From assembly GCA_039715075.1 (NCBI GenBank), contig JBDLIC010000004.1, positions 3,041 to 67,040 on the forward strand: DNA of 64,000 nt. The letters run 5' to 3'. Origin of the DNA: Nitrospirota bacterium (GTDB taxonomy: Bacteria > Nitrospirota > Thermodesulfovibrionia > UBA6902). The notes below the pieces were generated by a model. The model saw only the letters and a list, made by a program, of their open reading frames with translations. It was not told the origin of the DNA and ran no database searches. This document shows, piece by piece, positions 5,510 through 59,205 of this stretch (position 1 is its first letter; the number at the start of each line of letters is the position of its first letter). A program made the position numbers and the translations under genes.

Positions 5510-6352
5510 GTGCTTGCTAAAAGAATAATACCGTGTCTGGACGTAAAGGACGGAAGGGTTGTGAAAGGGGTCAACTTTCAAAACCTTACTGATGCCGGCG
5601 ACCCTGTCGAAAACGCGAAGTTCTATGATGAGCAGGGGGCTGATGAGCTTGTGTTCCTGGATGTAACCGCTTCCCATGAAAAAAGGGCAATTATCCTGGA
5701 TGTTGTCGCAAGGACAGCGGATGATGTATTTATGCCCCTGACCGTTGGGGGAGGTATCAAGACACTGGCTGATATAAGGGACCTTCTGAATGCGGGATGT
5801 GATAAAGTTTCTATTAATACAACGTCTGTCAGGACACCGTATTTTATAAGAGAAGCCTCTGAAAAATTCGGGAGCCAGTGTATCGTCGTAGCAGTCGATG
5901 CAAAGCGGTTGCGGCCTGATATGACATTTGAACCGGAAGAGCCGTGGTTTGATGATCCATTTTTAAACGAGACCTGCCTTAAAATGCTATCAAATGGCGG
6001 GACTGTCTGGGCCATTTCGACCCACGGAGGCAGAAAGATGCGGCAGATTGATGCTATTAAGTGGGCGAAGAAAATGGAAGAGCTTGGCGCAGGAGAAATA
6101 CTTCTTACAAGCATGGACCGGGATGGAACCAAGGACGGCTATGATATTGCACTGACCAGAAAAATATCGGAGGCTGTCACGATTCCTGTTGTTGCATCCG
6201 GCGGGGTAGGGACACTTGAGCATTTACGTGAGGGCCTGGTCGAAGGAAAGGCAGATGCCGCCCTTGCAGCCTCTATTTTCCACTACAGGGAGTATTCCGT
6301 AAAAGAGTCAAAGGAATACCTGAAATCAAAAGGGGTACCTGTGAGACTGTGA
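5510..6352 (+). CDS. hisF: imidazole glycerol phosphate synthase cyclase subunit HisF
   Basis: 280 aa; [16 protein letters not shown] start; carries a ~25-aa insertion relative to canonical HisF. Confidence 0.95.
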
Positions 6353-11800: not shown

Positions 11801-12169
11801 ATGTACGAATTAATGATTGAGTCACAATTTGCTGCCGCTCATCAGCTAAGAGAATATAAAGGGAAATGTGAAGCACTACATGGCCATAACTGGAGAATCC
11901 AGGTGACTGTCTCTTCTGACAAACTGGATGATCTTGGCATGGTAATAGACTTTCATGAGTTAAAGGACATGACCAATGAGACCATTGCATCACTGGACCA
12001 TTCTTTTTTAAATGAAGTTTTTCCATTTACTGAAATAAACCCCTCATCTGAAAACATGGCTAAATGGATCTTTGAATCAATAAAAAAGAAAATCGGGAAT
12101 AAGGCAATCAGTCTTTCATCTGTGACTGTATGGGAAAATGAAACAGCATCGGCTACCTTCTTTGAATAG
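11801..12169 (+). CDS. queD: 6-carboxy-5,6,7,8-tetrahydropterin synthase QueD
   Basis: 122 aa; CExLHGHNW motif of the PTPS/QueD family. Confidence 0.9.
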   Translation: MYELMIESQFAAAHQLREYKGKCEALHGHNWRIQVTVSSDKLDDLGMVIDFHELKDMTNETIASLDHSFLNEVFPFTEINPSSENMAKWIFESIKKKIGNKAISLSSVTVWENETASATFFE

Positions 12170-12175
12170 TGTTTA

Positions 12176-12357
12176 AACCTAAATCCGGCAGTTGAAACCT
12201 ACTGCGAAATGATAATGCAATGAATCTACAGTCTTTTTCAGAACATTTTTGTCTCACCGTAGAGGTGACTACGCCTTCGCCAAAAATAACCTGAAAAAGC
12301 CTGTATCTTCATCACCTTATCCTCTCTCGTCACGCCTTCAACTGCCGGATTTAGGTT
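12176..12357. repeat. REPIN/MITE-like element: 21-bp perfect inverted repeats flanking a 140-bp interior
   Basis: Left arm aacctaaatccggcagttgaa at 12176..12196; right arm ttcaactgccggatttaggtt at 12337..12357 is its exact reverse complement. Sits between convergent queD and the lipoprotein gene. Confidence 0.8.
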
Positions 12358-12390
12358 AGAATTTAACCGGGGATATTGATGGATTATGGG

Positions 12391-13299
12391 TTATGTGGAC
12401 TGTTCCCCGTTTTGAGCAAAACCTATTCTGGTGGTAAAGGGTACAATAATTTTGCCGCCGTGATTATCGTCTACCAGGACCTTTATTTCGTGAAGTCCTT
12501 CGTTTTCATGGCTGACTTTCCATTTGATAACTCCACTTGATGGATCGATGGTCATTCCGTCAGGGCTTTCCAGCAGCGAGTACGTAAGGAGATCGTTGTC
12601 CGGATCGGATGCGGAAACATGGTATTCGTAGGTATCCCCTGTAAAGGACGGTGATGATTCAGAAAAGACCGGTAATGAATTGTAAACACTGCTTTTTAAT
12701 ACAAGTTGCTTGCCGGATTCATCGCCGTCGTAAGGAGTAATACTGATTGAGATTTTGTCTCCTCTTTTAAGCGTGGCTTCGAGATAGTTTTCTTCACCTG
12801 CAAAATTACCATTCAGGGCCCATTCGTAACTATAGGAGACAATATCATTGTCAGCGTCCCTGGCCTTAACATTAATCTGCAATACTGAGTCGACCCTCGG
12901 GATTCTGGGTGACAATTTTGCATCTGCTATTGCGGGCGGTGAGTTTTTAATTGTTATTTCATTTGACATGAACTCCTGTTCATCTTTTTTCACGATTGCC
13001 TTAACCCTGTCCCCTTTATTAAGATCATTTGAACTGAAACGATAACCCTGAGCAGACTCAACTAATCCTTCGTTAATATACCAATGAATCTTTCCGCCGG
13101 TCAGTATGCTTCTTTCAGCCTTCAGAGTGAACTGAGCTTTTCTTGTGGCCTCATGAGGAACTATGGTGACCGGAGATGATATTGCCTGATCGTGTACATC
13201 CGTGTTCAGCGTAGATACCCTGCTGTTATCAGGACCATTACTGCAGCTGAGCAATATAAAAGACAAGAGCAGAATCAGGCATGCTCTGATAACAATCAT
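12391..13299 (-). CDS. lipoprotein with putative Ig/cadherin-like (He_PIG-type) repeats
   Basis: 302 aa; signal peptide with LLSC lipobox; DPDNDLLTYSLLESPDGMTIDPSSGVIKW-type repeat. Its start overlaps the PilY1 stop by 4 nt, so it is the last gene of the pilus operon. Confidence 0.6.
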   Translation of the reverse strand: MIVIRACLILLLSFILLSCSNGPDNSRVSTLNTDVHDQAISSPVTIVPHEATRKAQFTLKAERSILTGGKIHWYINEGLVESAQGYRFSSNDLNKGDRVKAIVKKDEQEFMSNEITIKNSPPAIADAKLSPRIPRVDSVLQINVKARDADNDIVSYSYEWALNGNFAGEENYLEATLKRGDKISISITPYDGDESGKQLVLKSSVYNSLPVFSESSPSFTGDTYEYHVSASDPDNDLLTYSLLESPDGMTIDPSSGVIKWKVSHENEGLHEIKVLVDDNHGGKIIVPFTTRIGFAQNGEQST

Positions 13300-27071: not shown

Positions 27072-27169
27072 AAATCCCCCTTTGGCAAAGGGGGATTTAG
27101 GGGGATTATTAAAATGATTTTAGTATGATTATAAAATCTCCCCTAACCCCTCTTTGCCAAAGAGGGGAA
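27072..27169. repeat. bipartite palindromic intergenic repeat, copy A (~100 bp)
   Basis: hairpin aaatccccctttggcaaagggggattt + agggggatt + AT-rich spacer + aatctcccctaa + hairpin cccctctttgccaaagagggg; homologous copies at 49509..49598 and 63914..63960. Confidence 0.85.
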
Positions 27170-30282: not shown

Positions 30283-30371
30283 ACTGTTCCAACCGTTCCA
30301 ACAGTTTTAACTGTTCCAGCAGTTAACGGCTCAAGCGGCTGAAACGGCTGAAACGGCTGGAACGGTTTTTT
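30283..30371 (+). terminator. compound repeat-hairpin terminator (inverted 9-mer arrays + T6)
   Basis: Array ctgttccaa ccgttccaa cagttttaa ctgttccag and an inverse array aacggctga aacggctgg aacgg, followed by tttttt. Confidence 0.55.
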
Positions 30372-32822: not shown

Positions 32823-32825
32823 AAA

Positions 32826-32914
32826 GGATCCAAGGGGTCCAGGGTTCAAGGATTCGAGTGAAAGAAAAATCAGTTTCACTTGAACCCTCGAATCCTTGAA
32901 TCCTTGAATCCTAG
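32826..32914. repeat. inverted tandem-repeat arrays (GGNTCCAGG-type 9-mers vs CCTTGAATC-type)
   Basis: ggatccaag gggtccagg gttcaagga ttcgag ... cttgaaccc tcgaatcct tgaatcct tgaatcct, between moeB/thiF and the ThrC paralog. Confidence 0.7.
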
Positions 32915-32979
32915 ACTCCTGGTAATAAACAGGAAATATTTTACTAAGTATAGAAGTAATATTGGAGGCAAATTAAATT

Positions 32980-42291: not shown

Positions 42292-42377
42292 GCCGGAGTG
42301 GTGAAATGGCAGACGCGTCGGACTCAAAATCCGATATCCTCCGGGATGTGTGGGTTCGAATCCCACCTCCGGCACCA
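42292..42377 (+). tRNA. tRNA-Leu (anticodon CAA)
   Basis: 86 nt; GCCGGAG acceptor stem; long variable arm; anticodon loop CUCAAAA; TPsiC arm GGTTCGAATCC; terminal CCA encoded. Confidence 0.88.
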
Positions 42378-43272: not shown

Positions 43273-43806
43273 ATGAAAAGAAAAATTCTTTTGACCATAG
43301 GTGTTGTTTTTTTGGCTATCACGCTTTCTGCGGTTCTGTTTAATGAATATGCTGAAGGGACAAATCCTTACAGTTCCGGAAGGATGATAGGCCAGCCGGC
43401 ACCTGATCTTTCTCTGAAGGACCTGTCAGGCAATGAGGTATCGATAGCATCTTTTAAAGGAAAAACAGTTTTGTTGAATTTCTGGGCCACATGGTGCCCA
43501 TATTGCAGAAAAGAGAGGACCGAACTGAACACCCTTCATGATGAATATAAGGACAAAGGTCTGGTGATTGTTTCGGTATCAATCGACAGGTCTATGGAAA
43601 AACTGAAGCGCTATATGAAAGAGATGCCTGCTGAATTTATTGTCCTGTCCGATACAGAGGGTTCGTCAGCCGGATCATATGAAATTATGGGTCTGCCGAC
43701 TTCTTATATGATAGACAGCAAGGGAATAGTAAGGCACAAGAATACGGGGTACAAAAAATGGACCAGCTCTTCTTCAAGGAAAATCATTAATGACCTGGTC
43801 AATTAA
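43273..43806 (+). CDS. TlpA/ResA-like thiol:disulfide oxidoreductase
   Basis: 177 aa; signal anchor; thioredoxin fold with WATWCPYCR. Confidence 0.85.
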   Translation: MKRKILLTIGVVFLAITLSAVLFNEYAEGTNPYSSGRMIGQPAPDLSLKDLSGNEVSIASFKGKTVLLNFWATWCPYCRKERTELNTLHDEYKDKGLVIVSVSIDRSMEKLKRYMKEMPAEFIVLSDTEGSSAGSYEIMGLPTSYMIDSKGIVRHKNTGYKKWTSSSSRKIINDLVN

Positions 43807-43968
43807 GAGCCTGTCGGACTTAGGGAATCGTCACGAAAAATGGATAAATTTAGAACAGATTTTCAAGGTTTTGAGGCGAATAGTAGAGCTATTTAACGAA
43901 AAACCATGGAAATATGAGCAAATTTAGCCATTTTGCAGTAGATTACTTCCTAAGTCCGACAGGCTCTT
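43805..43968. repeat. REPIN/MITE-like element: 20-bp perfect inverted repeats flanking a 124-bp interior
   Basis: aagagcctgtcggacttagg at 43805..43824 and cctaagtccgacaggctctt at 43949..43968; core CCTAAGTCCGACAGG is related to the arm of the 12176 element but in the opposite arrangement. Confidence 0.8.
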
Positions 43969-43982
43969 ACGACCCGTTTTTC

Positions 43983-49457: not shown

Positions 49458-49508
49458 TTAAGAATTACGAATTTTGGATTAATATTTCATGAAAAGTTAT
49501 CCTTTTAT

Positions 49509-49598
49509 ATCTCCCCCTTTGGAAAAGGGGGATTAAGGGGGATTTTATAATTACATCATTGAAAAATCCCCCCTAGCCCCCCTTTACTAAAGTGGGGA
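49509..49598. repeat. bipartite palindromic intergenic repeat, copy B
   Basis: atctccccctttggaaaagggggattaagggggatt...aatcccccctagcccccctttactaaagtgggg; homologous to 27072..27169. Confidence 0.85.
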
Positions 49599-49648
49599 AT
49601 ACAAGTTGAGGAGTCAATAATGCAGTTAACCTTTATAAGGCATATTTA

Positions 49649-56166: not shown

Positions 56167-56353
56167 AAGATGGGTAACCGGACCATTTACATCACCGCAG
56201 ATGATCTTCACCTTTTAAAAACTACGATTGACGAATGACGAGGTTATTACTACTTCGTAATTCGTCAATCGCTATTCGTCAATTTCTTTTCCTGTTGTTT
56301 AAAGGATTAGTTACCTTCTGTCTGCGATATAAGGATAGTGATAGGAGAATAAA

Positions 56354-57939: not shown

Positions 57940-57989
57940 AAAATGGGCCGCCTTTCTGAAATGAGATATCTTACCATTAATAGTACTAA

Positions 57990-58112
57990 GCTGTCAGCCG
58001 TCAGCTATCAGCTCTCAGCCTTAAAAAAAAAACGAAAGCACCTGCTTTAGTTTAGCTGTCAGCTATCAGCTCTTATTTTTTAGCTGACCGCTGAAAGCTG
58101 ACGGCTGACAGC
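57990..58112. repeat. GCTNTCA heptamer arrays (direct array + inverted array pair) with embedded terminator
   Basis: 57990..58020 gctgtca gccgtca gctatca gctctca gcc; 58054..58072 array; 58083..58112 inverted array ctgaccgctgaaagctgacggctgacagc. On the minus strand a hairpin AAGCAGGUGCUU plus U10 at 58023..58049 terminates the OYE gene, whose C-terminus is encoded within the arrays. Confidence 0.8.
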
Positions 58113-59205
58113 TTTTTTTCTTTACACAATAAATTCCTGTACCCCTTAAGCCAGGCCTGAAACACGCATTGTCGGACATGCATGCTGATTGTATTTCTTT
58201 ACCTGATTCCCACCTGTTGATCAGATCAGGGTCCCGGATGAAAGAACGGCTCATCGATATATAGTCAGTGGTCCCTTCGGTTAACAATTTTTCAGAAACT
58301 TCAAAAGAACGGATACCACCGACGAGCATTAACGGGACAGTGATTTCGGACTTGAATAATTTTGCGGCTTCCAGGTAATAAACCTCTTTATCTGATTCAG
58401 GCATGCCGGGCCTTACCGGTCTCAGCTTTCTGTCAGAATGAATCGTGCCTCCGCTTAACTCAATCGCATCGATGCCCTCTTTTTCGAGCATACGGGAGAC
58501 CACTATCATTTCTTCAACATTGAGTCCGTCTTCCAGAAAGTCTTCAGAGTTTATCTTTATTAAAACAGGGAAGTCATTACCCACGGCATTCCTGACTGAT
58601 CTGTATGATTCAATTATAATACGTGCACGGTTTTCAATGCTGCCGCCATAATCGTCTTCTCTCCTGTTGTAAAACGGTGAGAGGAACTGGCTTAGAAGAT
58701 AACCATGTGCAGCATGAATCTGGACTCCGTCAAAACCGGCCTCTTTTGCCCTGGCAGCTGCATCCCCGAATGCCCTGACTGTTTCTGCTATATCTTCAAT
58801 GCTCATTGCCCTGCATATTGCTTTTCCATTAATCTCAAGGGCGGATGGTCCTGATGGCTCATCTCCGGTGAGTTTCAGGCTGGCCTGGCAACCTGCATGC
58901 GCGAGCTGAAGTACGATCGTTCCATTACTTTGATGGACAGCTTCTGTCATTGATTTAAAACCGGGAATAAAATCATTTTTATGAATACCCAGCTGAAAAG
59001 GCCCTGCCTGGCCTGCGGACTGTACAAAGGCATATCCGGTTATTATCAAACCAGCACCGCCCTCTGCCAGTTTCACCATCATGTCTGTTAACTGTGGAGT
59101 GCAGGAACCGTCCTTTCCTGCGAGCCCCACCCATGTTGCAGAACGCACAAAACGGTTTTTTAGAATCATATTATTTATTTCTGTTTTTTCAAATAAATCT
59201 GACAT
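58066..59205 (-). CDS. Old Yellow Enzyme family NADH:flavin oxidoreductase
   Basis: 379 aa; TIM-barrel OYE motifs (HAAHGYLLSQFLSP); C-terminal Cys residues. Confidence 0.88.
   Translation of the reverse strand: MSDLFEKTEINNMILKNRFVRSATWVGLAGKDGSCTPQLTDMMVKLAEGGAGLIITGYAFVQSAGQAGPFQLGIHKNDFIPGFKSMTEAVHQSNGTIVLQLAHAGCQASLKLTGDEPSGPSALEINGKAICRAMSIEDIAETVRAFGDAAARAKEAGFDGVQIHAAHGYLLSQFLSPFYNRREDDYGGSIENRARIIIESYRSVRNAVGNDFPVLIKINSEDFLEDGLNVEEMIVVSRMLEKEGIDAIELSGGTIHSDRKLRPVRPGMPESDKEVYYLEAAKLFKSEITVPLMLVGGIRSFEVSEKLLTEGTTDYISMSRSFIRDPDLINRWESGKEIQSACMSDNACFRPGLRGTGIYCVKKKSCQPSAFSGQLKNKS

Follow-up and report, generated by a model that had tools for sequence, protein, structure and literature searches.

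The perfect inverted repeat between two convergent genes of the Nitrospirota contig belongs to a discrete inserted element, designated hereafter as E1 (positions 12178-12355, 178 bp, termini CC...GG), which is very probably a MITE that uses the transposase of an IS1380-like IS. E1 is short (a limit of under ~600 bp was applied for MITEs) and non-coding, has terminal inverted repeats (TIRs) and a target-site duplication (TSD) of fixed length, is present or absent at orthologous sites, occurs as copies at multiple loci, in other genomes included, and shares its ends with autonomous ISs. The original prediction had called it a REPIN/MITE-like element, and these features uphold the MITE part of that description.

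A repeat search of the 64-kb window, i.e. the whole stretch of DNA that was analysed, found the inverted arms at 12176-12196 and 12337-12357 (21 nt, 100% complementary, 140 nt apart). They lie between queD (+ strand, ending at 12169) and the gene of a He_PIG lipoprotein (302 aa, - strand, ending at 12391), which confirmed the prediction of 21-bp perfect repeats enclosing 140 bp between convergent genes. The outer 2 bp of the repeat (AA/TT) are part of a quasi-palindromic 5-bp target duplication and not of E1 itself, the TIRs of which are 19 bp in length, perfect and start with CCTAAATCCGGCAGTT. The insertion point is 3 nt past the queD stop codon. The enolase encoded 900 bp upstream is 100% identical to a protein of a Nitrospirota MAG. 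The parts of the element and its flanks are as follows.

12173-12177, no strand: left TSD of E1, TTAAA; 5-bp direct repeats flank the CC...GG ends, and the site is empty in L005
12178-12196, + strand: left TIR of E1, CCTAAATCCGGCAGTTGAA; based on the repeat search and on end conservation over 52 ends, with the same ends or close variants in L039, L170, L172, L174 and L175
12197-12336, no strand: interior of E1, non-coding and imperfectly palindromic, with 46-nt inner arms that are 76% complementary and an apical stem-loop at ~12259-12279
12337-12355, - strand: right TIR of E1, the perfect complement of 12178-12196
12356-12360, no strand: right TSD of E1, TTAGA, with one mismatch; based on flank comparison and the empty site

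At 178 bp, and with no ORF of 40 aa or more inside 12178-12355, E1 is short and non-coding. Its predicted fold is an imperfect hairpin over the whole length (-73.1 kcal/mol, z -10.6 against dinucleotide shuffles); the small internal hairpin noticed earlier at 12252-12270 does overlap the apical stem-loop of this fold, but the pairing register differs. No promoter- or terminator-like site was found in the interior. At gathering score no Rfam family matched E1 or the second element of the window, E2 (described below), the sole above-threshold match in the window being a tRNA, and permissive thresholds added just far-sub-threshold matches to plant miRNA hairpins. Searches of the 64-kb window and the first loci with nhmmer and blastn retrieved no further copies of E1 or E2, so that the window contains one copy of E1.

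The gene order eno-divIC-queD / He_PIG-pilY1 is kept in relatives. They differ as follows in the gap that separates queD from the lipoprotein gene, with the identity of enolase given in brackets.

Window: 221 bp, contains E1 (enolase as reference)
L005: 94 bp, a different hairpin with an 18-bp stem and no E1 (97%)
L003/L004: 66 bp, without an element (94%)
L006: 199 bp, yet another inverted-repeat element (88%)

The TSD of E1 is 5 bp long with one mismatch, TTAAA on the left and TTAGA on the right. The empty site of L005, TGT-TTCAA-ATTTAGCGGGGA, corresponds to TGT-TTAAA[E1]TTAGA-ATTTAACCGGGGA in the window, with precise junctions, and because L005 in this way shows the empty counterpart of the window sequence, E1 can be recognised as a discrete insertion accompanied by a 5-bp duplication. 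The mismatch in the duplication implies that the insertion is not very recent, and given this mismatch the copy may be inactive. L005 contains a hairpin of its own (6235-6300), a few bases away from where E1 inserted, with an 18-bp perfect stem (TTAACCCGCATATTGCAT...ATGCAATATGCGGGTTAA); it seems that this gap has acquired palindromic elements of a different kind in each lineage. In short-read contigs of the same strain from Logan, L001 ends at window position 12215 (19 nt inside E1) and L002 starts at window position 43937, 12 nt before the right arm of E2; breaks inside both elements are as expected of sequences that are repeated in the same metagenome.

Homologous elements were searched for by a paired-motif scan for two copies of the core CCTAARTCCGRCAG, as seen in the E1 arms, 135-165 nt apart, on contigs of one genome per species, the source genome not being among the representatives scanned. 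The scan identified 25 loci besides E1, with an estimated ~0.01 expected by chance. The hosts belong to Acidobacteriota, Alpha-, Beta- and Gammaproteobacteria and Verrucomicrobia and include a Nitrospirae MAG and the isolate Tibeticola sediminis. A check of the flanks for TSDs, proposed along with the original prediction, revealed a 5-bp duplication: among the 24 elements with both flanks present, 15 had a TSD that was perfect over 5 bp and six matched at 4 of 5 positions, E1 itself having TTAAA/TTAGA. The TSD consensus is N-T-N-A-W, with T at position 2 in 48/48 and A at position 4 in 45/48, while controls with shifted positions mostly gave 0-2 matches. The ends are conserved over 16 nt (52 ends compared), and positions 15 and 16 are T in 52/52 and 49/52 cases, respectively, though unforced by the search pattern. 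The interiors fall into five mutually unrelated clusters. L016, from the Nitrospirae MAG Glo_13, is 92% identical to E1 (also 92% in the interior) and sits at a different locus, between a UbiA-like and an lptG-like gene, with the TSD ATTAT; the interior of L017 is 72% identical to that of E1. Pairs of loci that occur within one MAG (L012/L033, L015/L021 and L022/L028) are 97-100% identical. A BLAST search for E1 in plasmids and a scan of viral contigs for the apex motif gave no match.

Full-length ISs with E1-type ends were found six times (L039, L170, L172, L174, L175 and L176; 1630-1731 bp), L175 and L176 being the same IS in two contigs. Four of them are flanked by perfect 5-bp TSDs: L039 (ATTAG), L170 (TTAAA), which is located on a Polaromonas plasmid, L172 (ATTAC) and L174 (TTTAA). 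For L175 and L176 the flanks disagree with each other, possibly as a result of chimaeric assemblies. L039/L036 was obtained by scanning viral contigs with the 16-nt end; it is 1638 bp in size, has the ends CCTAAATCCGGCAGTTGAGGG and CCTAAAAACGGCAGTTGGCTG and encodes a polypeptide of 514 amino acids that matched NF033539 (IS1380 family) with an E-value of 7e-45 and 153 bits, the cut-off being 180, and PF13701 with 86.8 bits (threshold 34.7). PF13701 is also on record for the transposases of the other ISs with E1-type ends. Across these ISs the ORFs are 486-526 aa long. Their best-matching model by a wide margin is NF033539, which aligns full length (E 1e-39 to 1e-52), at scores of 136-179 bits that all stay just under the curated cut-off of 180. 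Annotated IS1380-family proteins were about 22-27% identical to the E1-partner transposases in tblastn. The latter appear to form a divergent clade rather than to be textbook IS1380. Their protein family has at least 7722 members at E <= 1e-40. A tblastn search of the 64-kb window found no transposase of this type.

The partner ISs resemble members of the IS1380 family in their length of 1.6-1.7 kb, the single DDE ORF, the IS1380 model as best match and PF13701; E1 differs from IS1380-family ISs in that it is without a transposase gene. ISEcp1 of this family has the IRL CCTAGATTCTACGT and 5-bp AT-rich direct repeats (PMC6061673), IS1247 is 1672 bp long with a direct repeat of 5 bp (PMC3281130), and an annotated IS1380-family IS on an Aliarcobacter plasmid has the ends CTAAATTTC and the TSD TAATT. 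E1 shares with ISEcp1 and IS1247 the 5-bp, AT-rich direct repeats, and the ends of E1 (CCTAAATCC...) and of ISEcp1 (CCTAGATTC / CCTAAATTC) both start with CC(TA). The IRR of ISEcp1, read as CCTAAATTCCACGT, matches the E1 ends at 10/14 positions, both beginning CCTA. The target preference of the E1-type elements, N-T-N-A-W, is sharper than that reported for ISEcp1.

The 16-19-bp ends of E1 (CCTAAATCCGGCAGTT...) are the TIRs of a large group of IS1380-like ISs, and we propose that an IS of this group, located elsewhere, would supply a DDE transposase that binds both ends and mobilises E1 in trans. The enzyme would make cuts staggered by 5 bp at a pentanucleotide N-T-N-A-W and integrate the element there, leaving the 5-bp TSD. 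E1 has landed 3 nt past the queD stop codon, in the convergent gap, solely in the lineage of this Nitrospirota MAG. The link between E1 and its transposase is suggested by the common ends, the 5-bp TSD and the IS1380-like transposases that lie between such ends. A MITE accounts for the perfect 21-bp repeat without any new mechanism. The ~80-bp RNA hairpin of E1 could affect termination or stability of both converging transcripts.

A native, non-mobile hairpin that evolved in place, either as a bidirectional terminator or as an mRNA-stabilising stem-loop, would fit the position between convergent genes, the very stable whole-length hairpin and the presence of other hairpins in the same gap of relatives. 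It is nevertheless highly improbable, considering that relatives at 97% and 94% enolase identity are without E1, that the insertion junctions are precise, that other phyla and unrelated loci have copies with the same ends, every one of them flanked by a 5-bp duplication of its own, and that E1 contains no U-tract or terminator-like site. Once inserted as a MITE, E1 may have a secondary terminator effect. The inverton model, in which E1 would be an invertible DNA switch with recombinase sites flanking a promoter, draws on the geometry of perfect inverted repeats 140 bp apart, which is typical of such switches, but hardly deserves credence: there is no promoter-like site inside E1, which lies between two gene ends; syntenic annotation shows no recombinase gene nearby; E1 has the same orientation in the independent Logan assembly of the same strain as in the window; and the repeats are better accounted for by the TSDs and the transposase-bearing relatives. 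Inversion of E1 would change little, as its interior is nearly palindromic.

The original prediction had also linked E1 to REPINs, in which two REP sequences in inverted orientation are mobilised by a RAYT (Y1/HUH) transposase. E1 does resemble these, since it is an intergenic, symmetric doublet that can fold into a hairpin. The arms of REPINs consist of REP palindromes, the head of which is conserved and of the GTAG type, and to our knowledge REPINs leave no target duplication. In contrast, E1 has a 5-bp TSD and DDE-type TIRs, its ends are those of ISs with a DDE transposase, and its arms are neither self-palindromic nor REP-like. The original prediction had suggested that RAYT-type transposases be sought; no RAYT gene was present among the called genes around E1 or E2 in syntenic loci. 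The REPIN link was accordingly dropped as extremely improbable. The TSDs, the empty site, the copies at other loci and the full-length ISs with the same ends identify E1 as a MITE and not a REPIN. Correia elements (Neisseria), ERIC/IRU, RUP and Nezha are bacterial MITEs that form long intergenic hairpins. Like E1 they are 100-250 bp long, non-coding and intergenic, with TIRs, a TSD and, once transcribed, a whole-length hairpin; sequence similarity to E1 is absent, and Correia elements and RUP differ further in having a TA duplication as opposed to the 5 bp of E1. Correia elements have known effects on transcription or RNase III processing.

The second element of the window, E2, is an IS1182-type MITE whose insertion is likewise lineage-specific. 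It belongs to another family than E1, one that is far more abundant. The repeat search found its inverted arms at 43804-43824 and 43949-43969 (21 nt, 100%, 124 nt apart), and its predicted fold is likewise an imperfect hairpin over the whole length (-79.7 kcal/mol, z -12.3 against dinucleotide shuffles).

43803-43806, no strand: left 4-bp target duplication of E2, TTAA, which includes the tlpA stop codon TAA at 43804-43806; the site is empty in L166-L168
43807-43966, no strand: E2, a MITE of another family than E1; arms of 18 bp, GAGCCTGTCGGACTTAGG / CCTAAGTCCGACAGGCTC, enclose an interior of 124 bp that is conserved and palindromic
43967-43970, no strand: right target duplication of E2, TTAC, with one mismatch; based on empty-site comparison

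The empty sites of L166, L167 and L168 read caatTTAAGGCCCGttttt, as compared with caatTTAA[E2]TTACGACCCGttttt in the window. When the empty site caatTTAAGGCCCG is set against caatTTAA[E2]TTACGACCCG, the 4-bp duplication is seen to keep the stop codon of tlpA, exactly on which E2 sits. The tlpA-gcvH gap is 100-101 bp in relatives with TlpA 84-90% identical and 264 bp in the window. Downstream of E2 is the gcvH promoter, TTGACA-17-TAGAAT; the right arm of E2 ends 16 nt, and the duplicated TTAC 12 nt, upstream of its conserved -35 box. The positions of E1, 3 nt past the queD stop, and of E2, on the tlpA stop and near the gcvH -35 box, suggest that both insertions may alter termination or expression.

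The geometry of E2 was found at no fewer than 120 loci in the metagenome scan, i.e. at least 120. Among the matches listed, the spacing is 123-125 nt in 111/121 copies, the consensus is CTAG-GAGcCTGTCGGACTTAGG-[124 bp]-CCTAAGTCCGACAGgCTC-CTaG, conservation ends sharply 22 nt outside the interior, and the copies are mostly intergenic and rare between divergent genes. No RNA-strand signal was detected among these matches (G·T versus A·C mismatches 471 versus 556). An HMM of the family interior matched E2 with an E-value of 2.8e-19. A scan with the outer arm identified two ISs, L184 (1602 bp) and L179 (1637 bp), with the ends CTAG|GAGCCTGTCGGA..., and the arms of E2 also begin with GAGCCTGTCGGA. 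Their ORFs matched NF033551 (IS1182 family) with 367 and 379 bits, respectively, the cut-off being 270. An origin from the IS1182 family is indicated by the ends GAGCCTGTCGGA and CTAG flanks as in L184/L179, the 4-bp TTAA/TTAC duplication and the empty sites of L166-L168. ISPse1, an IS1182-family member (1653 bp, 16-bp IR), likewise has a direct repeat of 4 bp (PMC3281130). What these ISs and the E2-type MITE have in common is the terminal 16-30 nt only; the 124-bp interior of E2 is a conserved palindromic module that L184 and L179 do not share.

One plasmid copy was recovered in a BLAST search of plasmids with the E2 consensus, on pMPC6-328K of Pseudomonas sp. MPC6 (L169 6001-6167, corresponding to 140983-141149 of the plasmid). 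It is unannotated, has the arms CTAGGAGGCTGTCCGAGAACAG and a conserved interior, and differs in its inner arm, which is without CCTAAG; no IS with this arm was found by BLAST. Between paired E2-type arms in the metagenome loci there were ordinary genes or a third degenerate copy and no transposase, and no neighbour gene recurred apart from three IS110-family insertions. These lie at the left CT|AG boundary of E2-type elements (L142 1844-3500, L054 179-1830 and L122 530-2150), with CTAG-ACAT at the left and ATATC-AG-GAGCC at the right junction, as if this IS110-family IS targeted the end of the MITE. Head-to-tail E2-type copies sharing one CTAG were observed in L059 (4529-4855), L076 (3766-4091) and L144 (1280-1480), where two interiors are separated by a perfect palindrome of 40 bp, CCTAAGTCCGACAGrCTC-CTAG-GAGyCTGTCGGACTTAGG. 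Within 2 kb, L059 has three E2-type copies, one of which abuts a short resolvase-like ORF, and L045 is a solitary arm with the full 22-nt E2-type end (E2 model E 7e-6) and no partner arm or transposase nearby. The candidate copy L044 lies within a phage gene and was discarded as a chance match.

In the window the core CCTAARTCCGRCAG is present four times, at exactly the four arms of E1 and E2 (~0.89 expected at <=2 mismatches), a count of 4 that no shuffle reached. The original prediction was thus correct in placing it in both elements, but the view that it defines a single repeat family is rather hard to sustain and we consider it quite unlikely. In favour of one family, the cores are 12/14 identical with both differences being transitions, the subterminal motifs CTACTGCG and CTCG..ACG are common to both elements at equivalent positions, and the interiors of the E1 subfamily are weakly like the E2-family interior (its three members score z 3.9-5.9, and 23 other E1-type elements -1.6 to 1.9). 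Against it stands the polarity of the core, since CCTAA is on the outer side in E1 but on the inner side in E2; the 14-mer runs in the wrong sense with respect to the termini used in transposition and so cannot define one transposon family. Furthermore, the TSD is 5 bp (N-T-N-A-W) for E1 versus 4 bp (CTAG/TTAA) for E2, with its 18-bp arms; the partner transposases are IS1380-like versus IS1182 family, whose ends E2 carries; E1 is missed by nhmmer when the E2 interior model is used; and the more distant E2-family copy on the Pseudomonas plasmid is without the CCTAAG part of the core. That E2-type arms might be 'inside-out' IS1380 ends cut by an IS1380-like enzyme was considered and rejected as their way of moving, as the empty site shows the whole 160-bp unit, outer ends included, to have been inserted.

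In global alignment to the E2-family interior the window copy of E1 scored z 5.9, L016 3.9 and L017 4.9; the remaining 23 E1-type interiors scored between -1.6 and 1.9. Among the 26 E1-type elements, only this E1 subfamily (window, L016 and L017) is both a whole-length palindrome and like the E2 interior. When the E1 subfamily is compared with the E2 family, the subterminal motifs next to the 14-mer are collinear, and the 14-mer itself is inverted in place. Read inwards-out, the arm of an E2-type element (CCTAAGTCCGACAG) makes a near-perfect IS1380-like end. The E1 subfamily might conceivably be a chimaera, in which the interior of an IS1182-type (E2-type) MITE was re-packaged between IS1380-like ends, an idea that is speculative and on balance unlikely; an IS1380-like transposase could have captured the E2 module because tandem E2-type copies face such ends outward. 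If true, it would be a documented hijack of one MITE family by an unrelated transposase and would account for the inverted state of the common 14-mer.

E1 as a MITE is ordinary in mechanism and noteworthy just for the breadth of its distribution and for a weak connection with another MITE family that is very abundant. The analysis defines two MITE families together with their probable transposase families, an IS1380-like one that has 5-bp duplications and extends over four or more phyla and an IS1182-type one with at least 120 copies in the metagenome scan; neither was found in the searchable literature, where string searches for the ends and the apex motif retrieved no relevant paper and none printing the E1-type ends. 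Such MITEs break short-read assemblies, can mimic regulatory hairpins and mark very recent events specific to a lineage, as in the relatives without E1 (enolase 94-97%) or without E2 (TlpA 84-90%).

Further repeats were observed in the window. A third palindromic family, with arms like CCCCCTTTGGnAAAGGGGGATTwAGGGGG, is present twice (27076-27166 and 49505-49604), and a related element in L006 (8450-8615; BMS3Abin06, enolase 88%) fills the queD-lipoprotein gap where the window has E1. A tRNA gene (42292-42374; Rfam RF00005, 58.8 bits) is situated ~1.4 kb upstream of E2. More long imperfect hairpins, made of short tandem units, are found at 32825-32920, 30291-30367, 56225-56271 and 57988-58114, the last of these consisting of the heptamers CAGCTGT/CAGCCGT.
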